Assembly: GCA_030390025.1 (NCBI GenBank)
Contig: CM059431.1
Span: 139,192,001 to 139,256,000 of the forward strand
Direction of reading: 5' to 3'
DNA: 64,000 nt
DNA from: Squalus acanthias
Taxonomy: Eukaryota
Positions 1,362-57,258 of this stretch are shown here, in pieces; position 1 is the first letter of the stretch, and each line of letters opens with the position of its first letter. The translations under genes and the position numbers were made by a program. The notes below the pieces were generated by a model. That model saw nothing but the letters and a program-made list of their open reading frames with translations, searched no databases and was not told the origin of the DNA.

Positions 1362-4060
1362 TTACTGGTGGTAACTCTACTCTAACATTACTGGTGGTGA
1401 CCCTACTCTAACATTACTGGTGCTGACTCTACTCCAGCATTACTGGTGGTGACTCTACTCTAACATTACTGGTGCTGACTCTACTCTAACTTTACTGGTG
1501 CTGACTCTACTCTAACATTACTGGTGGTGACCCTACTCTAACATTACTGGTGCTGACTCTACTCCAGCATTACTGGTGGTGACTCTACTCTAACATTACT
1601 GGTGCTGACTCTACTCTAACTTTACTGGTGCTGACTCTACTCTAACATTACTGGTGGTGACTCTACTCTAACATTACTGGTCATGTCTCTACTCCAGCAT
1701 TACTGGTGGTGACTCTACTCTAACATTACTGGTGGTGACCCTATTCTAACATTACTGGTCGTGACTCTACTCTAACATTACTGGTGGTGACTCTACTCTA
1801 ATATTACTGGAGGTGACTCTACTCTAACATTACTGGTGGTGACCCTACTCTAACATCACTGGTGCTGACTCTACTCCAGCATTACTGGTGGTGACTCTAC
1901 TCTAACATTACTGGTGGTGACTCTACTCTAACATTACTGGTCATGTCTCTACTCCAGCATTACTGGTGGTGACTCTACTCTAACATTACTGGTGGTGACT
2001 CTACTCTAACATTACTGGTCATGTCTCTACTCCAGCATTACTGGTGGTGACTCTACTCTAACATTACTGGTGGTGACCCTACTCTAACATTACTGGTCAT
2101 GTCTCTACTCCAGCATTACTGGTGGTGACTCTACTCTAACATTACTGGTGGTGACACTATTCTAACATTACTGGTGGTGGCCCTACTCTAACATTACTGC
2201 TGGTGACCCTACTGCACCATTACTGGTGGTGACTCTACTCTAATATTACTGGAGGTGACTCTACTCTAACATTACTGATGCTGACCCTACTCTAACATTA
2301 CTGGTGATGACACTACTCGAACATAACTGGTGGTGAGCCTACGCTAACATTACTGGTGGTGACTCGACTCTAAAATTAGTGGGGGTAAAAATTCACTTGG
2401 TTGCGCCACCCGTTAGCGCCTTAAGAGGGCGCTAATGGGGCGCAAAGCCGCTAACGCCCGGGCGCAGCGATGTTTGCGCCGCTCGAGAACTTAACTTGAG
2501 ATTGTGCGGCGGCGCTAAAACTTACCGCTGCGACCACCTGCGCGCGCAGATTGTGACGTCATTCCATGATGCAACGCCCTTGGGGCGCCCCGTAGCGGAA
2601 ATTGAGTGGCGTCCCCTGCCTTACCGCCTGGCGCTTCCAACGACCAGAAGACTGGAACGCTATCAATCGCTGTGGGGCTGGGGGGGGGGGGGGGGGGCGC
2701 TATTTAAAGGGGGCCTCTTCCTGTCTTTTATTGTTGGTGGCATTTTTGAACTACGCATTCTGAGAGAGAGAGGGAGAGACTTCTGGAGAGATTCAACGTT
2801 GTGTGAAGGAGTTTTGGGTACTGAGCAGCACTTTGCAGGTTCATTTTGATTTGCCATTCCTTGTATCGATTTAGCAGAGACCGTGGGAGCTGCACTCTGA
2901 GCTCTTTGCCTGGTGCTCTCCATTGTTCTTTCCAGCACATTTGATGTGCAAGTCTCTCCAGGCCGAGATTCAAGGCAGCAATGAACAGGATGTGGATGGA
3001 AAGCAAGATTAACCATCCCCTTTAAGAACTGGCCCGTGCCATTGTGTGTGTGTTCCATTGCTGACTGACATTACATGAGCTTCGCCAGCGCTCCGAGTTA
3101 GCGCCTCACTGCTCGGCCTTTGTGCCTTAAGAGAGGTGTGCAGCGCCTGCTTTAGCGCTCCACTCACCTCCCGGGGCGGTAAAAGTGAAGTTTCCCGTCA
3201 GTGCCGATAATTAGCGCCAGGCGCTAATATTTGCGTCCGGATGATATTTGCGCCCCAAATGGGGCGCGACCTAATTTCTACCCCCTGGTGTTTACCCTGC
3301 TCTAACATTACTGGTGGTGACCCTGCTCTACCATTACTGGTGGTGACCCTAATCTAACATTACTGGTGGTGGCTCCACTCTAACTTTACTGGGGGTGATT
3401 CTACACTAACATTACTGGTGGTCACTCTACTCTAAAATTACTGGTGGTGACCCTGCTCTACCATTAGTGGTGTGGACCCTACTCTAACATTACTGGTGGT
3501 GACCCTACTCTAACATTACTGGTGGTGACCCTACTCTAACATTATTGGTGGTGACACTACTCTAACATTACTGGTGGTGACCCTACTCTAACATTACTGG
3601 TGGTGACCCTACTCTAACATTATTGGTGGTGACCCTAATCTAACATTACTGTTGGTGAACCTACACTAACATCACTGGTGGTGACCCTACTCTAACATTA
3701 CCCGTGGTGACTATACTCTATCTGTTTTGTTGGTGACCCTACTCTAACATTACTGTTGGTGCCTGTACACTAACATGACTAGGGATGACACTACTCATAC
3801 ATTACTGGTGGTGACCCTACTTTAACTTCACTGTGAAAGGCCCTACTCTAACATTAATGGCTATGCCTCATTACTGCTTGTGAATCTACAATAATATTAC
3901 TGGTGCTTACTTGGCTCTAATATTACTGTAGGTGACCCTAATCTAACATTGTTCGCGGTGATCCGATTCTAATATTGTTGGTAGTGGCTCTTCCCAAATG
4001 TTACTGCTGGTAACAATACTCTAAGCTATTGGGTGGTGATTCCTCTCTACTTTTACTGCT
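1362..4060. repeat. 26-bp minisatellite (TCTAACATTACTGGTGGTGACTCTAC)n, split by a transposon at 2382-3284
   Basis: Direct 26-bp periodicity at 1362-2381 and 3285-~4060, degenerating toward the right end. Confidence 0.95.
2382..3284 (+). mobile_element. Non-autonomous PIF/Harbinger element (903 bp)
   Basis: TIRs GGGGTAAAAATT / AATTTCTACCCC; the first ~450 bp and last ~200 bp align with the ends of the element at 25793-30329; flanks GTG/CTG fit a 3-bp TSD of the minisatellite CTG with one mismatch; no transposase. Confidence 0.92.
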
Positions 4061-7569: not shown

Positions 7570-7755
7570 GGCCTAAAAATTCGTCTCAGACGGAGGGGAA
7601 AAACGGGCGGTATCGGATCGGCCGCCAGTTATACGCAGCGCCTGATATTCAGTTCTATTGCAGTCAATGGATCTGAATTTCAGGCGCTGTGTCTAACGGG
7701 TGGCCGATTCGATATCGCCCGTTATTCGTCACCGCCCGAGACGAATTTCTAGCCC
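7570..7755. mobile_element. Palindromic MITE (~186 bp) with Harbinger-like termini
   Basis: GGCCTAAAAATTCGTCTC ... GAGACGAATTTCTAGCCC; the whole element is an imperfect fold-back; second copy at 57073-57258. Confidence 0.8.
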
Positions 7756-10480: not shown

Positions 10481-10897
10481 GGGGAAAGAAATACTTCCAC
10501 AAGGATCTGGACAGGGCAAGGATCAGCTCAAATTCCAAATCTGCGACTTGCTAAAATCAAACGATGAACTTCTACCTCATCGGTTGTAAGTTAATACCAT
10601 GGGTATAAATAGCAAGATTTACACCGACTTTAAAATTAATGCGTCAGAGTAGGCGTCACAGGGAATGCCAGCAATGATTGCCCATCTATAGTTGCCCTTG
10701 AAAAGATGCTGTAAGCTGTCTTCTTGAAGCGCTGCAGTCCATATTTTGAAGGTGCTTCCTTAGTATTGTTAAGTACGCATTTCCATGATTTTTACCCGGT
10801 GAGGGAACGGTGATATATGTCCAAGTCACTATGTAGTGTTCTTGAATGGGATCCTGGACGCGATAGTGTTCCCAAGCTGTCTGCTATCCTTCTATTA

Positions 10898-11127
10898 AAA
10901 TGAGAAGTCGCACAACACTAGGTTATAGTCCAACAGATTTATTTAAAATTACAAGCTTTCGGAGCTGTCGCCCCTTCCTCAGGTAGAGTAACTGTTACTC
11001 TACCTGAGGAAGGGGCGACAGCTCCGAAAGCTTGTAATTTTAAATAAATCTGTTGGACTATAACCTGGTGTTGTGCGACTTCTCATTTTTGTCCACCCCA
11101 GTCCAACGCCGGCATCTCCACATCATG
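10898..11127. mobile_element. Penelope-like element remnant: inverted pLTR pair with 12-bp TSD
   Basis: Arms 10897-10992 and 10994-11089 are reverse complements with 1 mismatch; ATCCTTCTATTA is repeated at 10886-10897 and 11128-11139; contains a hammerhead core and AATAAA. Confidence 0.85.
11001..11036 (+). ncRNA. Minimal hammerhead ribozyme motif (mirror copy on the minus strand at 10950-10985)
   Basis: UAC-CUGAGGA-A-GGGGC(GACA)GCUCC-GAAA-GCUU-GUA: CUGANGA and GAAA boxes, stem II, palindromic AAGCUU helix III, 3-bp stem I. Confidence 0.7.
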
Positions 11128-11264
11128 ATCCTTCTATTAGGCAGTAATGATTGCGAGTTTGGGAGGTGCTGTGCAAGAAGCCTTGGCGAGTTGCTGCAGT
11201 TCTTCCTGAAGCTAGTTCACACTGCGGAGACGGTGCACCAGTGATGGAGGGTGTGGCTGTTTAA

Positions 11265-15407: not shown

Positions 15408-15506
15408 CATAGATACATAGATACATAGAAGATAGGAGCAGGAGTAGGCCATCCGGCCCTTCGAGCCTGCTCCGCCATTTAATGAGATCATGGCTGATCC
15501 TTCAAT

Positions 15507-18458
15507 TCAGTATCCCGTCCCCGCCTTCTCTCCGTAACCCTTAACCCCTTTTGCCTGTAGAAATATATCTAATTCCCTCTTAAATATATTTAATGAGCTG
15601 GCGTACACTGCCCTCTGTGGCAATGAGTTCCACAGGTTCACCACTCTCTGAGTGAAGAAATTCCCCCTCATTTCTGTCCTAAATGGTTTAGCCCTTATCC
15701 TTAAATTATGTCCTCTAGTTCTGTTCTCACCCGCCAAGGGAAACATTCCTTCTGCATCTAATCTGTCTAGACCTGTCAGAATTTTATACACTTCTATGAG
15801 GTCCCCTCTCAATCTTCTAAACTCCAGTGTGTACATCCCTAAACTACATAGTCTCTCCTCATAGGTCAATCCCGCCATTCCTGGTATCAGCCTGGTGAAT
15901 CGCCGCTGCACCCCCTCCATGGCAAGAACATCTTTCCTCAGATGAGGCGACCAAAACTGTACACAGTACTCGAGGTGTGGTCTCACCAGTGCCCTGTACA
16001 GCTGCAGCAAGGTATCCCTGTTCCTGTATTCCAACCCTTTTGCTATGAAGGCCAGCATACCGTTTGCCTTCTTGACCGCCTGTTGCACCTGCATGCTCGC
16101 CTTCAGTGACTGGTGTACAAGAACACCCAGGTCTCTCTGTACTTCCCCCTCTCCCAATTTATTGCCATTTAAATAATAATTTGCCCTCCCGTTCCTGCAC
16201 CCAAGGTGGATAACTTCGCACTTGTCCACATTATAGTGCATCTGCCATTTATCCGCCCAATCACCCAGTCTGTCCAAATCGCTCTGGAGCTTCCTGGTCT
16301 CCTCCTCTGAGCCCACCCCCCCTCCTAGTTTAGTGTCGTCTGCAAATTTGGAAATGCTGCATTCGACTCCCTGATCCAGGTCATTAATATAAATTGTGAA
16401 CAGCTGGGGACCCAGGACAGATCCCTGTGGTACCCCACTTGTTACTGCCTGCCATTCAGAAAATGAGCCGTTTATTCCAACTCTCTGTTTTCTATCTGAC
16501 AGCCAGTTCTCTATCCACGTCAATACTTTCCCCTTTATCCCATGAGCTTCAATTTTCCATGCTAATCTTTTATGTGGGACCTTATCGAAGGCCTTTTGGA
16601 AGTCCAGGTACACCACATCTACTGGCTCTCCCCCATCTATTTTACCAGTTACTCCCTCAAAAAATTCCAATAGATTAGTCAAGCACGATTTACCCTTTGT
16701 AAATCCATGTTGACTCTGTCCTATCCTGTCCCCATTTGCTAAGTGCTCGGCTATTTCATCCTTAATGATGGACTCCAGCATTTTGCCCACAACTGATGTA
16801 AGGCTTACAGGTCTGTAATTACCTGCTTTTTCCCTACCCCCCTTTTTGAATAGTGGGGTAACGTTAGCTACCCTCCAATCCATGGGCACTGTTCCCGAGT
16901 CTAATGAATTCTGAAAAATCATGCTTAGTGCATCCGCTATCTCTAGGGCCACCTCCTTCAGTACCCTAGGATGCATGTTATCAGGCCCTGGGGATTTGTC
17001 CGCCTTCAATCCCTTTAGCTTCCTTAACACCATATCCTTAGAGATATTGATTTGCGTCAGTTCCTCCTTTGCCAATGTCCCTATTTTTCCCGATATCCCA
17101 GGGAGGTTTTTTGTGTCTTCCTTCGTAAAGACTGACCCAAAGTATGCATTTAGTTGGTCTGCCATTTCCTTATTTCCCATTATATATTCCCCCGTATCTG
17201 ACTGCAATGGACCAACTTTGGTTTTCACCAGTCTTTTCCTCTTGATATACTTATAAAAGCTTTTGGAGTTAGTTTTTATATTTTCCGCCAGCTTGCTTTC
17301 GTAAGCTATTTTGCCCTTCTTGATTAAGCCCTTTGCCCTCCTTTGCTCTATCTTAAACTGTTCCCAATCTTCCGCTCTGGCGCGTTTTTTGGCTATTTTA
17401 TACGCCCTATCTTTGGATTTTATGCTGTCTCTAATTTCCCCTGTTATCCACGGTTGAGTCACCTTTTTAGATTTCCTTTTATGCCAGATTGGTATAAACA
17501 ATTTTTGCAATTTTGTCATTCTATCTTTAAATGCTTGCCATTGTTTATCTACCTCCAGTCCTCCCAGGAACGTTGTCCAATCAGACCTACTCAGTTCCCG
17601 TCTAATGGCATCATAATTCCCCTTGTTTAAATTCAGGACCTGAGTCTCTGAGTCAATTTCTTCGCTCTCCATTTCGAGTGAGAAATCGATCATGTTATGA
17701 TCGCTCTGACCCAAGGGTCCCCGTACAACAAGATTACTAATTAGTCCCTTCTCATTGCACAGTACCCAGTCCAATATAGCCTGTTCCCGAGTTGGTTCCT
17801 CGACATATTGATCCAGATAACCATCCCTTAAACACTCAAGGAATTCCTCCTCCTCATTATTTTTACTGATTAGGCTAGTCCAATCTATATGTAAGTTAAA
17901 GTCACCTATGATGACAGCTGTGCTCTTATTGCACGCTTCTCTAATTTCCCTCGTGATGCCCTCCCCAACCTCTATTTTACTATTTGGAGGCCTATATACC
18001 ACTCCTATTAATGTTTTTCGCCCCTCGCTATTTCTTAGCTCCACCCATATAGATTCTGTATTAACTGAGTTAATATCCTTCCTTTCAATTGCATTTATCC
18101 CCTCTTTTACCAGCAATGCTACCCCTCCTCCCTTTCTTTTTTGTCGATCCTTCCTAAATACTGAATACCCCTGTATGTTAAGCTCCCAGCCCTGCTCACC
18201 CTGCAACCATGTTTCCGTAATCCCAATTAGATCATAATTATTAACCTCTATTTCCACAGCTAATTCATCTACCTTGTTCCTGATGCTTCTCGCATTAAGG
18301 TATAAAACCCTCAGGCTTTTTTTATGCTCACATTTTTTATGAATTAGTTTGGCCCTTTGTTTTTTGTTCCTCTCCTTTTTACCATTTATTTCTGTCTGCC
18401 TTTCACTTTCCTCTATTTCACTACATGGGTTTCTAGCCCCCTGCCATACTAGTTTAAA
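15507..18458 (-). CDS. CR1 ORF2: APE endonuclease + reverse transcriptase (open frame extends 67 codons upstream of the tracked GTG start)
   Basis: LYLNARSIRNK, ITETW, GDFN, SDHN (APE); [27 protein letters not shown] (RT). Frame is open from TTT AAA CTA at 18458 to the stop at 15507. Confidence 0.95.
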   Translation of the reverse strand, partial: FKLVWQGARNPCSEIEESERQTEINGKKERNKKQRAKLIHKKCEHKKSLRVLYLNARSIRNKVDELAVEIEVNNYDLIGITETWLQGEQGWELNIQGYSVFRKDRQKRKGGGVALLVKEGINAIERKDINSVNTESIWVELRNSEGRKTLIGVVYRPPNSKIEVGEGITREIREACNKSTAVIIGDFNLHIDWTSLISKNNEEEEFLECLRDGYLDQYVEEPTREQAILDWVLCNEKGLISNLVVRGPLGQSDHNMIDFSLEMESEEIDSETQVLNLNKGNYDAIRRELSRSDWTTFLGGLEVDKQWQAFKDRMTKLQKLFIPIWHKRKSKKVTQPWITGEIRDSIKSKDRAYKIAKKRARAEDWEQFKIEQRRAKGLIKKGKIAYESKLAENIKTNSKSFYKYIKRKRLVKTKVGPLQSDTGEYIMGNKEMADQLNAYFGSVFTKEDTKNLPGISGKIGTLAKEELTQINISKDMVLRKLKGLKADKSPGPDNMHPRVLKEVALEIADALSMIFQNSLDSGTVPMDWRVANVTPLFKKGGREKAGNYRPVSLTSVVGKMLESIIKDEIAEHLANGDRIGQSQHGFTKGKSCLTNLLEFFEGVTGKIDGGEPVDVVYLDFQKAFDKVPHKRLAWKIEAHGIKGKVLTWIENWLSDRKQRVGINGSFSEWQAVTSGVPQGSVLGPQLFTIYINDLDQGVECSISKFADDTKLGGGVGSEEETRKLQSDLDRLGDWADKWQMHYNVDKCEVIHLGCRNGRANYYLNGNKLGEGEVQRDLGVLVHQSLKASMQVQQAVKKANGMLAFIAKGLEYRNRDTLLQLYRALVRPHLEYCVQFWSPHLRKDVLAMEGVQRRFTRLIPGMAGLTYEERLCSLGMYTLEFRRLRGDLIEVYKILTGLDRLDAEGMFPLAGENRTRGHNLRIRAKPFRTEMRGNFFTQRVVNLWNSLPQRAVYASSLNIFKRELDIFLQAKGVKGYGEKAGTGY

Positions 18459-19396
18459 TGCTCCCGAACTGCTTTATCAAAATTTACCCCGAGAACCTCA
18501 GTTCCATCTTTGCACAGGTGTAGACCGTCCCTTTTGTATAGGTCACACCTACCACAAAACTGGTCCCAATGCCTCAAAAATTTAAAACCCTCCCTCTTAC
18601 ACCACTGCTCAAGCCACGTATTTAGCCTAACTATCCTGTTCTCTGTACTCTTACTAGCACGTGGCACTGGTAGTAATCCAGAGATTACTACCTTCGAGGT
18701 CCTACTTTTTAGCTTGGCTCCTAACTCCCTAAATTCTACTTGTAGGACCTCTTCCCTTTTTTTAGCTACGTCGTTGGTACCAACATGTATCACGACAACT
18801 GGCTGTTCCCCCTCCCCCTCCAGAATGTTCTGCACCCGCGCCGAGACATCCTTGACCCTTGCACCAGGGAGGCAAATTACCATCCTGGAGTCTCGGTCGC
18901 GACCACAGAAACTCCTATCTATTCCCCTTACAATCGAATCCCCTATTACTATAGCCCTGCCACTCTTTTTCCCTCCCTTCTTTGCAACAGAGCCAGTCAT
19001 GGTGCCATGAGCCTGGCTGCTGGTGCCTTCCCCCGATGAGTCATCCCCCCCGACAACAGCACCTAAGGCGGTGAACCTGTTGCTGAGGGAGACAACCCCA
19101 GGGGATTCCTGCACTACCTTCCTGCCCTTGCTCTGCCTTTTGGTCACCCATGTACTATCTACTCTGGCCTTAACCTGCGGTGTGACCAACTCACTAAATG
19201 TGCTATTCACAACCCTCTCAGAATCGTGGATGCTCCAAAGTGAGTCCATCCGCAGCTCAAGGGCCGTCATGCGGTCCCACATGAGCTGCAGCTGGACACA
19301 CTTCCCGCACACATGGTTGTCAGGGACACAGGAAGCGTCCATGATTTCCCACATGTTACAGGAGGAGCATGACACAGGTCCGAGCTCTACTGCCAT
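18449..19396 (-). CDS. CR1 ORF1p: Cys-rich zinc finger/leucine zipper + SGNH/GDSL esterase domain (315 aa)
   Basis: CSSC...CGKC, then IVIGDSIVRG, CLPGA, HVGTND, DGLHL esterase blocks. Confidence 0.95.
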   Translation of the reverse strand: MAVELGPVSCSSCNMWEIMDASCVPDNHVCGKCVQLQLMWDRMTALELRMDSLWSIHDSERVVNSTFSELVTPQVKARVDSTWVTKRQSKGRKVVQESPGVVSLSNRFTALGAVVGGDDSSGEGTSSQAHGTMTGSVAKKGGKKSGRAIVIGDSIVRGIDRSFCGRDRDSRMVICLPGARVKDVSARVQNILEGEGEQPVVVIHVGTNDVAKKREEVLQVEFRELGAKLKSRTSKVVISGLLPVPRASKSTENRIVRLNTWLEQWCKREGFKFLRHWDQFCGRCDLYKRDGLHLCKDGTEVLGVNFDKAVREHLN

Positions 19397-19649
19397 GACT
19401 TAACCCTTATATTACTTATTAATTTTCTAGTTTTAGTTTATTTATTGACTTTTGTTTTCCCGAAGCTTACTTAGACCAATGTATACTGTACTCCTCTTAT
19501 TCCTTTTTAAACTAACCAAATCGCACTAGTTTTAGTTGTACTTTCTAGGAAGGTTTGAGGAAAGTACTTACCAGTTATGCTGTAATATACCTTTAATCAT
19601 TTCGGCTGTCCTTCCTCCCCTTACAGTTTCCCGATCCTTTATACAGAGC

Positions 19650-21293
19650 ACTATCACTAGAGGAAAAAGTACTAGGCAAACTAATGGTTCTAAATGTGAA
19701 CAAGTCCACTGTACCTGATGGCCTGCATCCTATGGTCTTAAAATAATTGGCTGCATAGATAGTGGATGCATTGGTTGTAATCCACCAAAATTCCCTGGAT
19801 TCTGAAGTGGTCCCAGCGTATTGGAAAACCGGAAATGTAAAGCCCCAATTCAAGAAGGAGGGACACAGAAAGCAGGAAACTATAGACCAGTTAGCCTAAC
19901 ATCTGTCATTTTGAAAATGCTGGAGGCCATTATTAAGAAATTAGCAGCAGGATATTTAGAAAATCATAATACAATCAAGCAGATTCAGCAGGGTTTTATG
20001 AAAGGGAAATCACGTTTGTCAAATTTGCTATAGAGTTCTTTGAGGATGTAACGAGCAGGGTGGATAAAGGGGAACCAGTAGATGCAGATTATTTGGATTT
20101 CCAGAAGGTGTTCGATAAGGTGCCACATAAAAGGTTACTGCCCAAGTTAAGAGCTCACGGGCTTGGGGTAATATATTAGCATAGTTGGAGGATTGGCTAA
20201 CTCACAGGAAACAGAAAAATCGGGATAAATGGGGAATTTTTAGGTTGGCAAACTGTAACTAGTGGGGTGCCATAGGGATCAGTGCTGGGGCCTCAACTAT
20301 TTACAATCTATATTAACGGCTTGGATGAAGGAACCGAGTGTAATGTAGCCAAATTTGCTGATGATACAAAGATAGGTGGGAAAGCAAGTTGTGAGGAGGA
20401 CACAGAAAGCCTGAAAAGGCAGACAGATAGGGTAAGTGAATGGTCAAACATTTAGGAGATGGGGTACAATGTGAGAAAATGTGAGGTTATCCACTTTGGT
20501 AGGAAAAATAAAAAAGCAAATTATTATTAAAATGGAGAGAGACTACAAAATGCTGCACTGAAGAGGTATCTGTGGTTCTTTGTACATGACATTCAAAAAG
20601 TTAGCATGCATGTACAGCAATTAATTGGAAAAGCAAATGGAATGTTGGCCTTTATTGCAAGGGGATGGAGTATACAAGTAGGGAAGTCATGCTACAGCTG
20701 GACAGGGCATTGGTGAGACCACACCTGGAGGACTGCGAACAGTTTTGGTCTCCTTATTTAAGGAGGTATATATTTGCATTGGAGGAAGTTCATAGAAGGT
20801 TGACTAGGTTGATTCCTGAAATGAGGGGGTCGTCTTATGAAGAAAGGTTGCGCAGGTTGGGATTATACTCACTGGAGATTAGAAGAATGAGAGGTGATCT
20901 TATTGCAACCTATAAGATTCTGAGGAGACTTGACAGGGAAGATACAGAGAGGATGTTTCCCCTCCTGGGGAAAACTAGAAGTAGGGGGCATAGTTTCAAA
21001 ATAAGGGGCCGCCCATTTTAAACGAGAAAAGGAGAAATGTATTCCCTCAGAAGGTCGTGAATCTTTGGAATTCTCTGCCCCAGAGTGCGGTGGAGACTGT
21101 GTCATTGAATATATTTAAGTTGGAGATAGACTGATTTTTGAACTATAGGGGATTCAACGGTTATGGGGAGCGGGCAGGAAAGTGGAGTTGAGGCCTAGTT
21201 CATATAAGCCATGATCTTATTGAATGGCAGAGGAGGCTCGAGGGGCCAAATGGCATACTCCTGTTCCTATTTCTTATATTCTTATGTTCTTAT
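19650..21293 (+). mobile_element. 5'-truncated CR1 LINE (decayed RT to 3' end)
   Basis: AGNYRPVSLTSV, KFADDTK, LVRPHLE motifs with stops; (TTCTTATG)n tail at ~21271-21293. Confidence 0.92.
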
Positions 21294-21380
21294 TACCTGG
21301 AATTTTAAACTCCCGATCATGACCAGATTAAAGCATGTCACAGTAATTGCCACCATGTCGTACCCTCTAAGCTGTATTTA

Positions 21381-22306
21381 AGAACATAAGAAATAGGAGC
21401 AGGGATAGGCCATTCGTCCCTTAGAGCCGGCTCCGTCATTGAATAAGATCATAGCTGATCTGCTACCTCAAGTCCACTTTCCCGGAATGTCCCCATATCC
21501 CTTAATTCCCTTCTTTGCCAAATATTTATCGACCTCTGTCTTGATTGAATATGCTCAACGACTGAGCCTCCACAGCCCTCTGGGGTAGAGAATTCCAAAG
21601 ATGCACCACCGTCTGCGTGAAGAAATTTCTACTCATCTCAATCAGAAATGAACGACCCATTATTCTGAGACTGTGTCTCCTGGTTTTATACTCCCCAGCC
21701 AGGAGAAACCTCCTCCCATCATCTAACCTATCAAGCCCTGTAAGAATGTTAAATGTTTCAATTAAATCACCTCAATTCTTCTAAATTAGAGGGAATATAG
21801 GCCTAGTCTACACAATCACTCCTCATAGGACAATCCCCTCGTCCCAAGCAATCAGTCTGTTGGACATTCGTTGCACTCCCTCTTGGCAAGTATATCCTTT
21901 CTTAGATAAGGAGACTGAAACTTTACACAGTACGTCACGACTGGTCTCTCCAAGGACTCATATAATTGCATTAAGACTTATTTACTCTTATATTGCAATC
22001 ATTTTTTAACAAAGGCTAACATACCATTTGCTTTCCTAATTGCTTGCTGCACCTGTAGGCTAACTTGCAGTGTACAAGGGCACCCAGTTCCCTCTGAATC
22101 CCAACATGGCCCGATGTCTCACCATTTAAAAAATTCTGTTTTTCTATTTTTCCTACCAAATTGAATAACCTCAGATGTGCCCATATTATATTCCATCTGC
22201 CATGTGCTTTCCCACTCACTTAACCTGTCTATATCACATTGCATCATCTTTGCATCCTGCTCACAACTTACTTTCCCACCTAACTTTGCATCATCAGCAA
22301 ACTCGG
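21381..22306 (-). mobile_element. CR1 LINE 3' fragment
   Basis: SEFADDAKLGGKVSCE...WQMEYN; CR1 3' hairpin at ~21395-21435. Confidence 0.9.
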
Positions 22307-25792: not shown

Positions 25793-25964
25793 GGGGTAAA
25801 AATTCACTTGGTTGCGCCTCCCGTTAGCGCCTTAAGAGGGCGCTAATGGGGCGTTAAGCCGCTAACGCCCGGGCGCAGCGCTGTTTGCGCCGCTCGAGAA
25901 CTTAACTTGAGATTGTGCGGCGGCGCTAAAACTTACCGCTGCGACCACTTGCGCGCGCAGATTG

Positions 25965-26109
25965 TGACGTCATTCCATGGTGCAACGCCCTTATGGCGCC
26001 CCGGAGTGGAAATTGAGTGGCGCCCCCTGCCTTACCGCCTGGCGCTTCCAACGACCGGAAGACTGGAACGTTATCAATCGGTGTGGGGCTGGGGGGGGCG
26101 CTATTTAAA
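25965..26109 (+). promoter_or_regulatory. Candidate transposase promoter (CRE + TATA-like)
   Basis: TGACGTCA at 25965-25972 and TATTTAAA at 26102-26109, both retained in the non-autonomous copy (about 2554 and 2701). Confidence 0.5.
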
Positions 26110-26303
26110 GGGGGCCTCTTCTGTCTTTTTCTGTGGTCGACATTTATGCACCACTCGTTCTGAGAGAGAGAGAGAGATTCGGAGAGAGAGAGAGAGAGAC
26201 TTCTACATTGACTCAACGCTTTGTGAGGTAGTTTTGCCTAGTTCATCCTAACTTTGTTGCTACTTTAGTTGCTGTACCTCATTACTTTTCTGGCAAAGAG
26301 AAT

Positions 26304-27464
26304 ATGGGGGCTGCAATGATTGGGGGCGTCGTCCTGCTCCAGCTGAATCGGAGGATACCGAGACGCAGACAGAGAGTGGAAATGATGGCCAGACGGAGGA
26401 GGGCCATCAGGCGCATGTACAGGAGAGCTTACCCTCCCAGGGTATATCGTGAACAGCTCTCCTACATCCATATGTCCGAGGAGCTGTGTTTGCGAAGGCT
26501 GCGATTCAGCAAGGAGGTGGTCACTGAGCTCTGCCACCTGCTGCAGCCAGATCTGCAGCCTCAGCTGAGGTCCAGGACGTCTCTGTCGGTGGCAGTGAAG
26601 GTCACAGTGGCTTTGAACTTCTACGCCACTGGCTCATTCCAAGCTGCTGTTGGGGACCTCGCCAATATCTCCCAGTTTGCGGTGCATCGCTGCATCCGGC
26701 AGGTCACCAATGCCCTCTTCAGAAGGAGACGAGACTTCATCTCTTTCCCTATGACCCCAGACAAGCAGCGTGACCGTGCTCTGGGCTTTGCGAGGGTAGC
26801 GGGCTTCCCCATGGTGCAGGGCGCCATTGACTGCACGCATGTGGCTTTGCGTGCTCTGCGAGAGAATGCAGATGAATTCAGGAACAGAAAGGGGTTCCAT
26901 TCCTTGAATGTGCAGTTGGTCTGTGACCACAGACAGGTGATACTCGCTGTCAATGCCCACTATCCGGGCAGCTGCCACGATGCTTTCATCCTGCGCCAGA
27001 CTACTGTGGCAGAAGTTTTCGAGGCACCGCATCAGCCAGTTGGTTGGCTTCTGGGGGACAAGGGGTACGCATTGAGCACCTGGCTGATGACACCGCTCCG
27101 TACGCCAAACACCCCTGCTGAGCTGCGGTACAATGAAAGCCATCAAGCAACCAGGAACATTATTGAGCGCACAATCGGCGTGCTGAAACAACGGTTCCGC
27201 TGTCTGGACCATTCCGGAGGAGCCCTGCAGTACTCGCCTGAGCAAGTTTCGAACTTCGTAGTCGTGTGCTGCATGTTGCACAACATGGCAATCCTCAGGA
27301 CCCAGCCAATGCCACCAGGCCTTGTAGCACCACCAGAGGAGGAGGAGGAAGAGGAGGAAGAGGACGACGACGATGATCATCAGCAGCACCAAGGCAGGAG
27401 GGCGGCCCACAATGGTCAAACTACAAGGGCCGTCCGTCAACGACTAATAGCAAGCCGCTTCTAG
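26304..27464 (+). CDS. Harbinger DDE transposase (HARBI1-like, DDE_Tnp_4), 386 aa, intact
   Basis: GAIDCTH, NRKGFHSLNVQLVCD, PGSCHDA, LLGDKGY, RNIIERTIGVLKQRFRCL, CCMLHN; N-terminal HTH region; acidic tail. Confidence 0.96.
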   Translation: MGAAMIGGVVLLQLNRRIPRRRQRVEMMARRRRAIRRMYRRAYPPRVYREQLSYIHMSEELCLRRLRFSKEVVTELCHLLQPDLQPQLRSRTSLSVAVKVTVALNFYATGSFQAAVGDLANISQFAVHRCIRQVTNALFRRRRDFISFPMTPDKQRDRALGFARVAGFPMVQGAIDCTHVALRALRENADEFRNRKGFHSLNVQLVCDHRQVILAVNAHYPGSCHDAFILRQTTVAEVFEAPHQPVGWLLGDKGYALSTWLMTPLRTPNTPAELRYNESHQATRNIIERTIGVLKQRFRCLDHSGGALQYSPEQVSNFVVVCCMLHNMAILRTQPMPPGLVAPPEEEEEEEEEDDDDDHQQHQGRRAAHNGQTTRAVRQRLIASRF

Positions 27465-27758
27465 GGCCCCTGCCATTGCTACAAACACTAATCAACCCAG
27501 CACGCAACCCCTAAGCCGGCCAAGGCACCAATAATTCCAACCACCAGCCATGTATATTTTGAATACAGAAACTTATTTATTTTACAAACTCTGTGTGTGT
27601 CAATTCCTCATGACAAACTCATAGAAATAAACACAAAAAAACAGTCAATAACATAACTGGTTCTCACAACCTGGAGATAATGTCCAAAACACAAAACAAA
27701 AGTTGGACCATGAACCTCGGCCTTTAATAAAAAAATGACCAGCATTTTGTCACACCTC

Positions 27759-29637
27759 CTACTTTTTGCCCTTCGAGGGTGATCTCCTTCCCTTGCGCAC
27801 TTCCCCCCTTCTAACCCTACTGCTCCTCCGTAATGGGACCTCAGTGGCTGCAGCAAGGCTGGTGGAAGGCTGCTGCTCGTCAGACCCTGACACTGCAGAT
27901 GCCCTTGAAGGACGGACTCGACCACTTCTGGGCCTGGAGGGCCCGGCTGCAGACTGCACCAACTCTGCATGGGCGGCAGCAGTCTGTCCTACAGGCGGTG
28001 GCAAGTGCAGTGGAGAAGTGACAGTGTTGGCAGCAGGAATGCTGTCATCGTGAGAGAGGACAGCAACTCCCTGCTCGCCCGACACACTGGCACTCCCACG
28101 GGGCAGCACTTCAGCATCCGGAGCAATCTGCCGGAGAACAGATTGCTGGCCTGCTGCGGCGCGGTGACAGCCCCGGGGACATGTGCACGAACCATCGAGG
28201 TTGGCAGCAGTCTGTGCTCGCGTGGCCTCCATCTGAGTCTGTATGAGAGCAGTCAGAGGTGGGATCACGGCAGCCAGTGACTGAATTGCAGCACTAAGCG
28301 TTAGTGTGGCATCCGCCTGTGCTACAGCGAAGTGCTCCACACTCCTTGCCAGTGACTCAATGCATTCGGGCACCCTTCCCACTGCACCCATGAGCTCAGT
28401 GTGCATGCCCACCGCCTGGGTGTTCATTTCTGCAATCAGCCGCTCCTCCTCTGCGTCCATTGCAGTAGGAGTGTCTGGCATACTCTCCCTCTGGGGAGAA
28501 GGCCCCCGTTCTTCCCTACCCGCCCCCCATGGCGTTGCTGCAGCCCGCTGGGTCCTGGAGCTTCACCATCATCAGCCCCTTCCCCCCTGCTCCCCTCCGG
28601 GGAAGGCGTGTTCCCAGTGTGGGCATGGGCTTCCTCGGGAGAGGGTGGCACTGATGCTCTGGCTTCCTCTTCCTCCTCAGCTGCAGCATCACTCCCAGTG
28701 GCAGCTTCAGGGCCCGTCTCCTCAGCTGGTGAATCACCATCTGAAAGCAGAGAGGTACAAGAGTGGCTTTAGCGTGAGGACAGGGTGGCAGTAAGGGAGG
28801 AATAAGTGCAGCGAGTTAGCAAGTTGGATTGAAAGTGTCAAAGGCTGGTATTGTGAGGGACAAGTGGAAGGACAGAGGACAAAAAGGTGATGACCTTACC
28901 ATTGCTGTCCAGAACGGGGTCGGCGTCTCCAGTGGCGACGGGACCGATCACCCGGCTTGCCACAATCCTGTGGACGCGCTCCTCCAGATCGCTGAGGGGT
29001 TGCAGCTGAAGCCGCCCTCCACCCGTCCGTTGCTGCTGTCTCCGATTATGAGCCAGCTTAGCCTGCAAGAAAAAGGACAGCATCTGAGTAAATATACAGC
29101 CATGGTCTTGCCTGATGTGCCTCCCATAGGTGAATAGCCCTTACAATATACAGCCATGGTCTTGCCTGATGTGCCTCCCATAGTTGAATAGCCCTTACAA
29201 TATACAGCTACGGTCTTGCCTGATGTGCCTCCCATAGGTGAATAGCCCTTACTGTATGCAAAGTGTAGAATGTGTGTGTGTGTTTGATGAAAGGGCCATA
29301 GGTGTTGGATGAGTGTTGTGCATTGGGGTTTTAAGACCCTCTGGCCATAGAGTGAGGTTGAGATGGAGGGATGGAGAGGTATTGAGAAAAAGCCACTCAC
29401 CCTGACGACCCGAGTGAGGTCGTTGAACTTTTTGCGGCATTGAACATGGGTCCTGGGCACCATGCTACTGGAGGAGACGCTCTGAGCCACCTCCCTCCAC
29501 ACTCTTCTGAACTCGCGTGGCAAAGGCCTCCTGCCACTCTCCGGGAACAGCATGCATCGTCTGCGCTCCACTCCGTCAACCAGAGCATCCAAGGCCCGCT
29601 TGGTGAAGCGATGAGCGTGTTCTCTCACCCTCTCCAT
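27759..29637 (-). CDS. Harbinger Myb/SANT-like DNA-binding partner, three exons (29637-29401, 29062-28900, 28740-27759) with an apparent frameshift in exon 3
   Basis: Exon 1 MERVREHAHRFT...W..VA..V...PRTHVQCRKKFNDL (trihelix), GTGAGT donor; exon 2 AKLAHNRRQQQRTGGG, GTAAG donor; exon 3 after CTTTCAG; phases 0 and 1 match; basic C-terminus PLRRSSR. Confidence 0.85.
29091..29252. repeat. 3 x 54-bp tandem repeat in intron 1 of the Myb/SANT gene
   Basis: AATATACAGCCATGGTCTTGCCTGATGTGCCTCCCATAGGTGAATAGCCCTTAC at 29091, 29145, 29199. Confidence 0.93.
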
Positions 29638-29842
29638 GCTTGGCAGCAAAATGGATTACAGGTCTCTCCAGGCTGAGATTCAAGGCTGCAATGAGCAGGG
29701 TGTGGCTGGGGAGCAAGTGCCCCCCCCCCCCACTTTAAGAAGTGTCCGGCGCCAGTGTGTCTGTGTTCCCTCGCTAACTGGCAGCAGCTGCGCTGCGCTC
29801 GTGTGCTGAGTTAGCGCCTCACTCCTTGGCCTTTGCGCCTTA

Positions 29843-30160
29843 CATAGATACATAGATACATAGAAGATAGGAGCAGGAGTAGGCCATCCGGCCCTTCGAG
29901 CCTGCTCCGCCATTTAATGAGATCATGGCTGATCCTTCAATTCAGTATCCCGTCCCCGCCTTCTCTCCGTAACCCTTAACCCCTTTTGCCTGTAGAAATA
30001 TATCTAATTCCCTCTTAAATATATTTAATGAGCTGGCGTACACTGCCCTCTGTGGCAATGAGTTCCACAGGTTCACCACTCTCTGAGTGAAGAAATTCCC
30101 CCTCATTTCTGTCCTAAATGGTTTAGCCCTTATCCTTAAATTATGTCCTCTAGTTCTGTT
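29843..30160 (-). mobile_element. 318-bp 5'-truncated CR1 copy inserted in the Harbinger
   Basis: Identical by eye to 15408-15725; TSD CCTTA at 29838-29842 and 30170-30174; absent from the corresponding site in the non-autonomous element (~3125). Confidence 0.95.
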
Positions 30161-30470
30161 AAGACAGAACCTTAAGACAGGTGTGCCGCGCCTGCTTTAG
30201 TGCTCCACTCACCTCCCGGGGCGGTAAAAGTGAAGTTTCCTGTCAGTGCCGATAATTAGCGCCAGGCGCTAATATTTGCGTCCAGACGATATTTGCGCCC
30301 CAAATGGGGCGCGACCTAATTTTTACCCCTATGACTCTATCCGCAGGCGTAAGGCTTGCTTTTACAAGGATAAGAGTTGAAAAAAGTTTTTAAAAGATGT
30401 TTCACTGATTTATCATTTAAAAATACTTTAAAGAAAGTTAAGTTTATTTTTAGACACATAAAAAAAATTT

Positions 30471-31599: not shown

Positions 31600-32317
31600 C
31601 AAATTCGGGTCTCCACGGGTGAATACGCGCTGTGTACTCACCCGTAGACCCAACGAAAGTCCCGGTTTTGCGCATGCACTGCGCATGCGCTGGAAACAGG
31701 AACTTCCGTTCCCTTGAAGGAAGGGGTTCCGCGGTCAAACGCGGGCGCCGGAGAGGCAGCGTGCACGCATCGGACTTCCGTTTTTTTTCACGTTTCTGTG
31801 TGTGGGTAAGTCCCCAGCAGCTGCGTGGGGAAAAAGCAGGCGGATGGCTTGCTTTTAACAAGGTAAGTGGTGAATTAACAAAAATTAAAACATTTTTTCC
31901 ACAAGTTTATTATTTTTCAATACTTTAAAGACAGGTAAGTTTATTTTTAGCACCGTTAAAAACTGTAATTATATTTTTCAAAAATTTAATTTATTGTTTA
32001 ATAGTTATTTTGTGTAATTTACAGTTATTTTAAAAATGTGATTTAAAAAAATGTTTTTGAAGTTTTACTGAGGTTTTGGGGCTGATCTCTATTCCTAGAT
32101 TTGACAGGTCTTCCTGTCAAATCTATGAATGGAGATTCCCTGCTCCGATTGGATCTCCATTGCCCACGTAATCCCAGGGACGCTTCGAACTAACTGCGCC
32201 CCTGGGATACGCGAGCACTGCACACCGGTAGCTGGAGGAGGCCCAGGATTGGAATCCCACGCGGGTCCAGGTTTGGGGCTTGCACCCGCGGGAAGCCTCC
32301 GACCCGAATTTCAGGCC
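31600..32317 (+). mobile_element. Non-autonomous DNA transposon (~0.7 kb), copy 2
   Basis: AAATTCGGGTC ... GACCCGAATTTCAGGCC terminal inverted match; colinear with 30471-31210. Confidence 0.72.
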
Positions 32318-34204: not shown

Positions 34205-35134
34205 TCACGTATCTCCAGGGCAGTCCACAGTTGCCGCATCTGCCATTGCATTCCAGAAGAACAGCAGCTCGGAGAGTTTCACCCCGTGAGAGGTCACGAG
34301 TTTCCGAAATGTGCAAACAGAAAACGGGACTTTTGAAATGTAAAATATTTGGCGCGAGTGGATTTCCACAGGCTCGATCTTCAACTTAGCCAGACAGAGA
34401 GCGACGAAAACGTCCTCGAGTTTCAATTTGGGGACGGTACTCGAAACGTTCCAAACTCGGCAGGCGACATCAGTCGAGAGCACGTACCCAGTGCCGGAGC
34501 AGAATGGCGGATACGTTTCCAGCGGGTATTCCTGTTCACTAACGTACCATTTGTCGTTTTTTATCCTCACGGGTCGTTGATGTCTCTGTATGTAGCCGGT
34601 GAAGATGTTGCTGCGACTGGTTCGTGACAAGAGCTCTCTCAGATAATCAACATTGACAAACATGTCTGAATCGGTTTTCATCAGAAAGGAGGCGGACGGA
34701 CAAAATCGGATGACCCATTCCAGGCCCATCAGCACCTTGATGGTCAGGTTGTAATAAGTGTCGCTGAACTCTTTCTGTATGATGTCTTTGTGCAGCAAAC
34801 CTTCCTCTAGCAGATGCTCCTGATCCTCCCGGCTGTACCCGAGCAGGAAGTATGTCACTACCCTCTTGCCATGTGTTGTCCGCTCTCTGCCCCAGGTCTG
34901 GCGAATGGCCGAGCGAGCTTCGAACTGGTCCAGGGCACTGGTGACAAGAAGGACCAGGAATGGGGGACTGACGTCACACCTGCTGTCGGGTCTCATTAAA
35001 AAGGGGGACTCATTTAATTCTGTGTAATGCCAATGCTCAGTATTATTGCGGCTTAAATGTCTGAGTAATATAAATATCAGCAAAACGGTCACACAAACAA
35101 ATGAATATTTGTAGCACGTCTTTCGGAACAACAT
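34205..35134 (-). CDS. B3GALT5: Beta-1,3-galactosyltransferase 5 (GT31), 309 aa, single coding exon
   Basis: Type II anchor, PPFLVLLVTS, AIRQTWG, YYNLTIK, MKTDSDMFVN (DxD), YPPFCSGTGYV, LEDVFV, terminal DCP; colinear with the human protein as I recall it. Acceptor TTTTGTTTTACAG ends at 35170, 35 nt above the ATG. Confidence 0.93.
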   Translation of the reverse strand: MLFRKTCYKYSFVCVTVLLIFILLRHLSRNNTEHWHYTELNESPFLMRPDSRCDVSPPFLVLLVTSALDQFEARSAIRQTWGRERTTHGKRVVTYFLLGYSREDQEHLLEEGLLHKDIIQKEFSDTYYNLTIKVLMGLEWVIRFCPSASFLMKTDSDMFVNVDYLRELLSRTSRSNIFTGYIQRHQRPVRIKNDKWYVSEQEYPLETYPPFCSGTGYVLSTDVACRVWNVSSTVPKLKLEDVFVALCLAKLKIEPVEIHSRQIFYISKVPFSVCTFRKLVTSHGVKLSELLFFWNAMADAATVDCPGDT

Positions 35135-35260
35135 GTTGCATCAGAAAATATCTTCTTGTTTTGAATCACCTGTAAAACAAAATAAACAAATTGATTTTGT
35201 TGGATAACGGGTAATGCAAGGGGTAACACTTTCCAGTTAAAATTACTTGGCTCGATTACT

Positions 35261-35680: not shown

Positions 35681-35945
35681 GACTGAAAGTGAAGGGAACA
35701 AATTGAGAGTAATAATTTCACAAGCGCTTCGGGGAGACTGTCGGCTGGATCATCATAGCAGCTCTTAACTTGTTGGTCTGGTGTTGTCTCTGATTTTAAC
35801 AACTCCCACGACAATAAGTGGTTTAATTTAAATAAGTTGGAGTCGCCGCTAAAATAATCGAACCCGAAGGTCATCGGAGCGTTTAAAGCAGTTGTCATCT
35901 TGTCAGCAGTGTATCATAAATATGGAAACAGAATACATGCTGGAA

Positions 35946-38900
35946 GGTAGAAACAGTGGATGTCCAAAGCTAGAAACCGTGGTGGTCCAAAGCTAGAAAG
36001 AGTGACGGTCCAAAGCTAGAAACAGTGGTGTTCCAAAGCTAGACACTGTGAAGATCCAAAGTAAGAAAGAATTGAGAACCAAAGCTAGAAACTGTGAAGG
36101 TCCAAATCTAGACACAGTGGTGGTCCAAAGCTTGAGACAGTGAAGGTCCAAAGCTAGAAACAGTGAAGGTCGAAAGCTGGAAAGAGTGGTGGTCCAAAGC
36201 TAGAAACAGTGGAGGTCCAAATCTAGAAACAGTGGAGGACCAAAGCTAGAAACAGTGGCGGTCCAAAGCTAGAAACAGTGGTGGTCCAAAGCTAGAAACA
36301 GTGAAGGTCCAAAGCTAGAAACAGTGGAGGGCCAAAGCTAGAAACAGTGGTGGACCAAAGCTAGAAACAGTGGTGGTCCAAATCTAGAAACAGTGGAGGT
36401 CCAAAGCTAGAAACAGTGGAGGTCCAAAGCTATAAACAGTGGTGGTCCAAAGCTAGAAACAGTGGTGGTCCAAAGCTAGAAACAGTGAAGGTCCAAAGCT
36501 AGAAACAGTGGAGTTCCAAAGCTAGAAAGAGTGGAGATCCAAAGCTAGAAACAGTGAAGGTCCAAAGCTAGAAATAGTGAAGGTCCAAAGCTAGAAAGAG
36601 TGGAGATCCAAAGCTAGAAACAGTGAAGGTCCAAAGCTAGAAACAGTGAAGGTCCAAAGCTAGAAACAGTGAAAGTCCAAAGCTAGAAAGAATGAAGGTC
36701 CAAAGCTAGAAAGAGTGGAGATCCAAAGCTAGAAACAGTGAAGGTCCAAAACTAGAAACAGTGACGGTCCAAAGCTAGAAACAGTGCAGGTCCAAAACTA
36801 GAAATAGTGAAGGTCCAAAGCTAGAAACAGTGAAGGTCCAAAGATAGAAAGAGTGGAGATCCAAAGCTAGAAACAGTGAAGGTCCAAAGCTAGAAACAGT
36901 GAAGTTACAAAGCTGGAAGCAGTGAAGGTCCAAAGCTAGAAACAGTGAAGGTCCAAAGCTAGAAACAGTGAAGGTCCAAAGCTAGAAACAGTGTAGGTCC
37001 AAAGCTAGAAACATTGAAGGTCTAAAGATAGAAACTGTGGAGGTCCAAAGCTAGAAACAGTGGAGGTCCAAAGCTAGAAACAGTGAAGTTCCAAAGTTAG
37101 AAAAAGTGAAGGTCCAAAGCTAGAAACAGTGTAGGTCCAAAGCTAGAAACAGTGAATGTACAAAGCTAGAAATGGTGGAGGTCCAAAGCTAGAAACAGTG
37201 AAGGTCCAAAGCTATAAACAGTGTAGGTCCAAAGATAGAAAGAGTGGAGATCCAAAGCTAGAAACAGTGAAGGTCCAAAGCTAGAAACAGTGAAGTTACA
37301 AAGCTGGAAGCAGTGAAGGTCCAAAGCTAGAAACAGTGAAGGTCCAAAGCTAGAAACAGTGAAGGTCCAAAGCTAGAAACAGTGTAGGTCCAAAGCTAGA
37401 AACATTGAAGGTCTAAAGATAGAAACTGTGGAGGTCCAAAGCTAGAAACAGTGGAGGTCCAAAGCTAGAAACAGTGTAGGTCCAAAGCTAGAAACAGTGA
37501 ATGTTCATAGCTAGAAATGGTGGAGGTCCAAAGCTAGAAACAGTGAAGGTCCAAAGCTAGAAACAGTGTAGGTCCAAAGCTAGTAACAGTTTTGGTCCAA
37601 AGCTAGAAACAGTGAATGTTCAAAGCTAGAAATGGTGGAGGTCGAAAGCTAGAAACAGTGAAGGTCCAAAGCTAGAAGCAATGGAGGTTCAATGCTAGAA
37701 ACAGTGAAGGTCCAATGCTAGAAACAGTGTTGGTACAAAGCTAGAAACAGTGGAGTTCCAAATCTAGAAACAGTGGAGGTCCAAATTTGGAAAATGTGGA
37801 GGTCCAAAGCTAAAGAGAGTGAAGGTCCGAAGTTGGAAACAGTGGAGGTCCAAAGCTGGAAACAATGAACATCCAAAGCTAGAAACAATGGAGGTCCTAA
37901 GCTAGAAACAGTGGAGGTCCAAAGCTAGAAACAGTGTAGATCCAAAGCTAGAAACAGTGAAGTTCCAAAGCTGGAAACAGTGAAGGTCCAAAGAACGAAA
38001 AAGTTGCGATCCAAAGCTAGAAACTGTGAAGGTCCAAATCTAGACACTGTGGAGGTCCAAAGCTAGAAACAGTGAAGGTCCATAGCTAGAAACAGTGAAG
38101 GTCCAAAGCTAGAAACAGTGAAGGTCCAAAGCTAGAAACAGTGAAGGTCCAAAGCTGGTAACAGTAAAGTTCCAAAGTTAGAAACAGTGAAGGTCCAAAG
38201 CTAGAAACAGTGAAGATCCAAAGCTAGAAATATCGGGGGTCCAAAGCTAGGAACAGTGAAGGTCCAAAGCTAGAAATAGTGAAGGTCCAAAGCTAGAAAT
38301 AGCGGAGGTCCAACGCTAGAAACAGCGAAGTTCCAAAGTTGGAAACTGTGGAGGTCCAAAACTAGAAAGAGTGAAGTTCCAAACCTAGAAAAAATGGAGG
38401 CCCAAAGCTAGAAACAGTGAAGCTCCAAAGCTAGAAACAGTGAAGGTCCAAATCTAGAAACAGAGGTGGTCAAAAGTTAGAAACAGCGAAGGTCCAAAGC
38501 TAGAAACGGTTGAGATCCAAAGCTAGAAACAGTGGCGGTCCAAAGCTAGAAACAGTGAAGGTCCAAAGATAGAAACAGTGAAGTTCCAAAGCTAGTAACA
38601 GTGATGGCCAAAGCTAGAAATAGTGAAGGTCCAAAGCTGGAAACAGTGAATGTTCAAAGTTAGAAACAGCGAAGGTCCTAAGCTAGAAACAGTGAAGCTC
38701 CAAAGCTGGAAACAGTGCTGGTGCAAAGCTAGAAACAGTGGATGCCAAAGATAGAAACAGTGAAGGTCGAAAGCTAGAAACAGTGGAGGTCCAAAGCTAG
38801 AAACAGTGTTGGTGCAAAGCTAGAAACATTGAAGTTCCAAAGATAGAAACAGTGAAGGTCGAAAGCTAGAAACAGTGGAGGTCCAAAGCTAGAAACAGTG

Positions 38901-47449: not shown

Positions 47450-47454
47450 AAAAA

Positions 47455-56369: not shown

Positions 56370-57072
56370 TCTTCTTATAATCGTATAATTTTATAATAAT
56401 ATATATATATATATGTGTCATCAGGCTTCAATGCCAATGTTTGCACGCGGTTGCATAACATTTTCACGGGATGTGCAATGATGTCTCGTGCCTGAATGGT
56501 GAGATTGACAGGGCCCGACTTCAAGCGATGGAAAGTCAGTAATGCTGCTCAACAATTCCGTGAGGCTCCACAGGAAGTAGATATAAGAAAGTTTTCCATT
56601 TTTTCATCTCGCCCTGCCTGTTTACGCAAGTTAAAATGCCCTTGTGTCATACTAGCGGAGCTTGCAGGTTCCTGTTTGGGAACTAACTGAGCTTGTTGTT
56701 GCGCGAGCCTGAAACTTACAGGTAACAGCTGGTGAACAACATACGGTTAGGGGCAAGGGCAGAGAGTACTAATTAGACCCCAGCACATTGTGTATAATTA
56801 TAGGGCGAGTGGTCAGTGGGGCGGGGGGTGGGGGGTTCCTGATCAACCACCTTCGATTCGCAGTCTGATCAGTTCGCGATCCACGGTAGTCAGGTTGTAT
56901 AATTGTTCAGTTATCATACTAACATTGTTAACGTTACTTAACTTCAATAAACTTAATCTTTGTACGGAACCTCGCCATCACAAATTTACATTCTGGCGTC
57001 CCTGGGTGGACTACAGATTTCAGAGTGTTAGCGAGTTCTAGGCCCTTATTACATCACGTGTGACTAAACTTT

Positions 57073-57258
57073 GGCCTAGAAATTCGTCTCTGGCGGTGTC
57101 GAAAAACGGGCGGTATCGGATCGGTCGCCCGTTATACGCAATGCCTGATATTCAGTTCCATTGACTGCACTAGAACTGAACCTCAGGCTCTTCTTATAAA
57201 GGGCGGCCGATCCGATATCGCACGTTTCTTGCCACCGTCCGAGAAGAATTTATAACCC
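57073..57258. mobile_element. Palindromic MITE, second copy of the 7570-7755 family
   Basis: GGCCTAGAAATTCGTCTC ... GAGAAGAATTTATAACCC; internal sequence colinear with copy 1. Confidence 0.8.

Follow-up and report, generated by a model that had tools for sequence, protein, structure and literature searches.

A palindromic pair of truncated, hammerhead-bearing ends in Squalus acanthias, interpreted as a Penelope-like insertion

The stretch of Squalus acanthias DNA analysed here (the window) is 64,000 nucleotides long and carries, at positions 10886–11139, a short palindromic element surrounded by old LINE pieces. Its core is a 193-bp palindrome whose two arms of 96 nt each (10897–10992 and 10994–11089) are 99% complementary across a 1-nt spacer. 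The arms are identical at 95 of 96 positions, the sole mismatch lying between T10919 and G11067; T10993 forms the centre, and only the right arm continues into an extension of 38 nt (11090–11127). When recomputed, these coordinates agreed with the 96-bp arms, single mismatch, single central T and 38-bp right extension given in the preliminary description of this DNA. The 12-mer ATCCTTCTATTA stands at 10886–10897 and again at 11128–11139 as a perfect 12-bp target-site duplication (TSD); nine of its 12 letters are A/T, and it contains an ATT adjoining one presumed nick, an observation from a single site. Elsewhere in the 64 kb there is only one other perfect palindrome with arms of at least 12 bp (13-bp arms), and a 12-bp direct repeat in comparable placement occurred at 10 of 46,295 control positions. 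The conjunction of palindrome, TSD and hammerhead pair is not due to chance. The features are as follows.

10886–10897, no strand: left TSD, 12 bp, its last A shared with the left arm; a contig of run X2 skips exactly the element plus one TSD.
10897–10992, minus: putative inverted, 5'-truncated pLTR copy, tail-less; in family register it probably continues through 10993–10995 (loose end behind 10995 in six X11 contigs).
10938–10943, minus: AATAAA within the AU-rich run that follows the left hammerhead on its 3' side (sequence only).
10950–10985, minus: minimal type I hammerhead motif of the left copy, C3 at 10982 and predicted cut after 10953 (descriptor and the consensus of PMC4209133 Fig. 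S3).
10993–10995, no strand: head-to-head junction, comprising the central T and a possible 2-nt overlap (GT) common to both arms (weak, six contigs of one run).
10994–11089, plus: putative direct, 5'-truncated pLTR copy (arm comparison, summed contig depth in run X1).
11001–11036, plus: minimal type I hammerhead motif of the right copy (descriptor match, consensus fit, folding).
11001–11003 with 11034–11036, plus: helix I of the right motif, 3 bp.
11004–11010, plus: core CUGAGGA, followed by an extra A at 11011.
11012–11016 with 11021–11025, plus: helix II, followed by GAAA at 11026–11029.
11033, plus: U after which the cut is predicted, following the loop-less G-C.
11043–11048, plus: AATAAA within the AU-rich run that follows the right hammerhead on its 3' side (sequence only).
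11090–11127, plus: putative 38-bp PLE tail, on this arm alone; rich in A+C (25 of 38, counted by eye), final letters ATG, loose ends behind 11127.
11128–11139, no strand: right TSD, 12 bp, repeating the left 12-mer (run contigs).
11140–11220, no strand: target host DNA, belonging to an old high-copy repeat that is unrelated to the element (high summed depth; consistent loose ends at 11153–11158 and 11200).

Each arm contains one minimal hammerhead motif, and the two lie on opposite strands. Both read, in order, UAC, CUGAGGA, A, GGGGC, GACA, GCUCC, GAAA, G, C, U, U and GUA, followed by an AU-rich run, and C3 falls at 11004 (plus) and 10982 (minus). A descriptor of the minimal hammerhead, composed after the motif had been seen, matched only these two positions in the window and none in 100 Markov-1 control windows. 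The right-arm motif fits every position of the metazoan minimal hammerhead consensus for Penelope-like elements (PLEs) in Fig. S3 of PMC4209133, described there as CUGANGAH, G10.1-C11.1, GAAAN, a palindromic 15.2-16.2, NUH and a short helix I. In that figure, the G-C-U-U ending is found in the rows for Philodina (PLE-linked) and painted turtle, a coelacanth row linked to a PLE contains CUGAGGAA, and helix I is 3 bp long in many rows. The two divergent cores, each with its AATAAA, that the preliminary description had pointed out are thus borne out as one minimal hammerhead per arm. Rfam covariance models returned no family at gathering score; the 36 weak matches included no hammerhead family, and the miRNA-type matches, all far below gathering score, reflect the perfect hairpin. 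A word search of PMC1636495 found no passage on CUU triplets. Family variants in runs X2 and X11 have four extra letters at 11015, within hammerhead helix II, so that helix II or its loop varies between subfamilies.

Contigs from four of 24 public runs were aligned to the window at 85% likeness, and all contig figures here refer to the rows listed. One X2 contig joins 10886 to 11129 in uninterrupted target sequence, so that the 242 nt skipped equal the element plus one TSD. Over 140 positions it differs from the window by 18 letters and 6 gap positions, with the letters at the joint flagged as not known, and it therefore probably stems from a paralogous host-repeat copy. The 12-bp TSD of the preliminary description is accordingly seen from two sides, as perfect copies flanking the element and as a diverged copy of the target that lacks exactly the element and one TSD. 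A 212-nt contig of X1 tracks the flank, with 3 differences in 172 positions, as far as 10885, immediately ahead of the TSD, and 40 of its letters remain beyond that point. This stop is compatible with an empty allele because joints are placed leftmost, and it would imply one; the joint is outside the 15 of 45 that are listed, and a filled allele of that length is arithmetically possible. The locus may accordingly be polymorphic for the insertion, with filled and empty alleles. In run X6 (a different organism label, small share), the family was present and no joint was found at the 10886–11139 site.

The same contigs delimit the family to which the arms belong. Among the 24 of 762 rows listed, loose ends with unlike flanks follow 11127 in 67 X1 contigs, 51 X2 contigs and 5 X11 contigs (10 further X11 contigs have theirs at 11126); this tail end recurs in three of the four runs and is therefore a family boundary. 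A tail-less boundary at 11085–11086 was seen in three cases among the rows listed. Behind the ATG of the tail (11125–11127), the loose-end consensus starts with similar letters in X1 and X2, although overall agreement is low. This terminal ATG may have served the parent element as the start codon of its ORF. At the inner side, the six X11 contigs match through 10995 and then have other letters. The family sequence therefore extends further upstream, T10993 appears to be templated as the base that comes next in the family on the inverted arm, and the arms may share 2 nt. The great abundance of the family is plain from X1, where summed depth on the arm exceeds that of the unique flank by a factor of 4e4 to 2.4e5, a ratio that is not a copy number. 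Besides the junction in the window, 15 joints of the left arm to the right arm or tail were found among the rows listed, all with different centres; in the contig table, such joints have only 20–27 letters on their shorter side.

These observations point to a known type of insertion. An inverted pLTR, an optional 31-bp tail and TSDs of 8–10 bp are described in PMC3846280, and an inverted 5'-truncated copy with a 30–40-bp tail at one end in PMC8557442; in both of these and in PMC8969392, an inverted pLTR with optional tail and TSD is presented as the typical Penelope structure. The element has a head-to-head inverted 5'-truncated pLTR copy, a tail of 38 bp at one end, with its limit at a recurrent boundary, and a TSD. 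We conclude, with a probability of roughly 0.93, that the locus is a 5'-truncated PLE insertion of the type with inverted pLTR, tail and TSD, that is, a PLE stump. The fuller account, in which a single recent non-coding insertion was made in trans, twin-primed and joined head to head, is in our judgement very likely. The proposal of a young, non-coding Penelope insertion in the preliminary description is upheld by the match to the minimal hammerhead consensus, the empty target and the recurrent tail end, and its youth is probable. The element itself is a dead fossil with no ORF. Pfam, applied to 150 of the 161 window frames of at least 75 aa (11 frames overlapping the intact LINE were omitted and two tandem arrays excluded beforehand), gave 10 RVT_1 matches and no GIY-YIG domain. 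Blastn and nhmmer found no second family copy in the 64-kb window, and exact arm patterns had no matches in metagenome contigs, viral contigs or prokaryote genomes. A literature search found no paper on the shark family and the 14-nt arm motif in none; the repeat libraries Repbase and Dfam lay outside the search, and the family may well be catalogued there.

How such an insertion could have formed can be sketched from its boundaries. The RT-endonuclease protein of an abundant shark PLE would act in trans and nick the two strands of an AT-rich target within the old repeat at staggered positions, 12 bp from each other; the TSD and the empty target are observed, and the enzyme is presumed. Both 3' ends would then prime on pLTR RNA, one at a distal start at the tail end (11127) and the other at a proximal start at about 11089, and two different start sites would leave a tail on one arm only. 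This two-strand, two-site priming step is borrowed from in vitro work on the anole element PAc, whereas the boundaries themselves are observed. According to PMC11167929, both strands of the target are nicked and extended by the PAc protein, which favours AT-rich DNA and works with uncleaved RNA; reverse transcription has two internal start sites that bound the tail, the main one lying 85–92 nt 3' of the ribozyme cut. In the shark element, the predicted cut is separated by 94 nt from the tail end and by 56 nt from the arm end. Both cDNAs would end about 40 nt beyond that cut, and from this extension their templates would have been uncleaved RNA. The two cDNA ends would finally be joined head to head over an overlap of about 2 nt and filled in; an overlap of this length at the junction is expected by chance in 1 of 16 cases. 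On this analysis, twin priming from both nicked target strands is the route that we favour, with moderate confidence.

A different route to the same identity, possible but rather unlikely in our view, is that a cDNA primed at the tail end snapped back on itself, was copied by self-priming and stopped before the tail. The centre is perfectly symmetric here, with arms alike at all but one position, which suits snap-back at least as well as twin priming, and PMC3846280 interprets palindromes at inverted junctions as self-priming for the head-to-head repeats of PLEs. Among the 15 other listed junctions, four are likewise symmetric within 2 nt, and the remaining 11 speak against it by being asymmetric by 6–50 nt, although a loop can account for this. 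Snap-back also leaves unexplained the recurrent stop of the inverted arm 38 nt short of the tail end (three listed cases). The hairpin needed at this locus would have a 2-bp stem and a 1-nt loop, and a hairpin of these dimensions cannot form.

The junctions of other copies raise a further idea, namely that fold-back stumps record transposition, each arm reporting one of the two start sites of reverse transcription and many of their inner ends being run-off products from RNA cleaved by the ribozyme in vivo. Inner ends fall within 11031–11040 in 10 of the 15 other listed junctions (the uniform expectation is 0.21 per junction; p about 1e-4) and in six of the 10 junctions with known spacer letters, but within the narrower interval 11032–11036 in only four of 15 (p 0.07). 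The excess is confounded by the short sides, by an AT-rich, near-palindromic stretch that offers microhomology and by subfamily divergence that starts there, as well as by program-selected rows, junctions that are not independent and an interval chosen after looking. The copy at 10886–11139 is no run-off case, as both of its arms cross the predicted cut. We regard the idea as a tentative lead, with the odds well against it. Were it to hold across the genome, it would provide genomic evidence for in vivo cutting by metazoan minimal hammerheads; such cutting was not detected by RNA-seq of PAc, for which PMC11167929 reports no RNA-seq ends at the cut site.

Computed folding bears on whether the element could do anything of its own. 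The probability of helix II is 0.95–0.98 in the hammerhead alone or in the arm with its tail, and 0.05 in the arm without the tail; helix I reaches only 0.07–0.15 in isolated pieces. With 14 nt of upstream sequence, the probability of helix II falls to 0.006, and in RNA of the whole element, it is 0.000 on either strand and at every length of growing transcript tried. The hairpins of read-through RNA have computed energies of -178 kcal/mol for one strand and -180 kcal/mol for the other. By these models, the hammerheads of the element are passengers, predicted to be switched off in any read-through RNA. The long hairpin of the preliminary description holds insofar as a 96-bp hairpin folds if the locus is read through, but no evidence of transcription of the locus was found. 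Run X11, an RNA run by our guess, contains family contigs and has no cover at 10600–10761 and 10843–10869, gaps that say nothing about transcription. The same description had suggested dimeric ribozyme folding, which fails in cis: because the cores lie on opposite strands, a single transcript holds one core and its exact antisense and never two cores, and the read-through RNA buries helix II. A ribozyme dimer in cis was therefore rejected.

It is very unlikely that the element is functional, either as a source of dsRNA or siRNA against its family or as a regulated dimer ribozyme. The hairpin of a read-through transcript would suit the former, and rotifer PLEs give rise to small RNAs (PMC3846280); for the latter, AAGCUU lets two sense RNAs pair in trans as a 6-bp duplex in the computed dimer, where helix I is unformed and A14-U17 is also paired. 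Against both stand the opposite orientation of the cores with the loss of helix II in whole-element RNA, the apparent youth of a copy that is probably missing from another individual, and the distance of 23 kb to the closest intact gene-like ORF seen. PMC4209133 moreover describes no cleavage in vitro by a single minimal hammerhead motif and low cleavage by dimers, and the hammerhead of PAc requires its protein (PMC11167929).

Equally improbable is a palindrome that is itself mobile, whether as a MITE or foldback DNA transposon or as a palindromic non-autonomous retroelement, and that was amplified with its own centre. Short, non-coding elements with long inverted repeats and a TSD do look like this, and the sequence is very abundant. 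Yet the ends are asymmetric owing to the 38-bp tail, the other listed copies have different centres with no listed record spanning the T10993 centre, the upstream family sequence is non-palindromic among the rows listed, and the hammerhead core is positioned as in PLE pLTRs. A MITE or foldback transposon was rejected on the one-sided tail and the differing centres. Chimeric reads can produce near-perfect palindromes and no listed contig covers the whole stretch, but an assembly or library artefact (a hairpin chimera) is negligibly probable and was rejected, given a perfect TSD that agrees in length with the empty target, a one-sided tail that stops at the family boundary and similar junctions in contigs of independent runs.

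Several other features of the window were recorded. Two copies, 80–83% alike, of an imperfect 186-bp palindrome that is about 80% self-complementary lie at 7570–7755 and 57072–57258; its sequence suggests an old family of MITEs that has no relation to the Penelope insertion. A smaller palindrome at 32085–32136 has 13-bp perfect arms within a 52-bp imperfect inverted repeat, and a large imperfect inverted repeat (68%) at 20354–22301 derives from two opposed LINE 3' ends. An apparently intact CR1-type LINE occupies 15507–19399 on the minus strand, with an APE-RT frame of 988 aa and, upstream of it, a frame of 316 aa bearing a GDSL-lipase-like domain; its end at 15408–15725 is 100% identical to 29843–30160. 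At 25793–30329, there is a Harbinger-like transposon with a 410-aa DDE_Tnp_4 frame (plus) and a Myb/SANT frame (minus). Its ends resemble 2382–2791 and 3125–3284, probably an internally deleted Harbinger-like copy to judge by sequence, and these segments split a 26-bp tandem array (1354–2386 and 3285–3860). An uninterrupted beta-1,3-galactosyltransferase-5-like frame at 34205–35140 (minus) has 63–75% identity to its best shark relatives; of the 120 relatives listed for the ORF at 34208–35140, the top 35 come from cartilaginous fishes and the best 16 of these from sharks. Just upstream of this frame, an 11.5-kb tandem array (35944–47451) consists of a purine-rich 23-bp unit repeated in 501 copies. 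At 59216–60145 (minus), two frames match 7tm_1 weakly and represent a broken gene of a rhodopsin-family GPCR, and 59978–60112 is similar to positions 1–137 of the window.

The locus at 10886–11139 is an ordinary leftover of an insertion pattern already described for PLEs, and a single copy matters little among the very many fossil ends that this known class of retroelement has left. It is nevertheless a clean, young example in which all PLE hallmarks are gathered in 254 bp, and it could be used as a polymorphic marker. Taken together, the copies of the family offer a large natural data set on twin priming versus snap-back and on ribozyme cutting in vivo. For annotators, it is relevant that such stumps resemble MITEs or miRNA hairpins.

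Compared with known systems, the shark element shares with non-LTR retrozymes (bioRxiv 10.64898/2026.07.22.740005) a non-coding nature, a type I hammerhead and derivation from PLEs. Retrozymes, reported there in the single chondrichthyan sampled, are direct tandem repeats with at least two hammerheads on the same strand, whereas the arrangement here is inverted; because retrozymes need direct tandem units and no tandem array is present at the locus, this identity was rejected. Metazoan minimal hammerheads, as described in PMC4209133, have the same core, G10.1-C11.1, loop-less 15.2-16.2, NUH, short helix I and AU-rich 3' flank. They also occur as pairs on opposite strands, about 100–700 bp apart, while the cores of the shark element start only 22 nt apart; no cartilaginous fish is among the Fig. 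S3 rows that were compared. Pen2a/Pen2 of Adineta vaga (PMC3846280; overview in PMC8557442) have the same head-to-head pLTRs, one-end tail of 30–40 bp, TSD and palindromic junction. The shark copies differ in being cut to about 96 bp, so that no ORF lies between them, and in a TSD of 12 bp as against 8–10 bp in the rotifer. In PAc, a Poseidon-type PLE of Anolis carolinensis (PMC11167929), the ORF begins inside the hammerhead, whereas the shark arm has no through-running open frame and its tail ends in ATG; the two nevertheless have in common a hammerhead followed by an AC-rich region with two reverse transcription start sites that bound the tail, a similar distance from cut to end, an AT-rich target and an uncleaved template.
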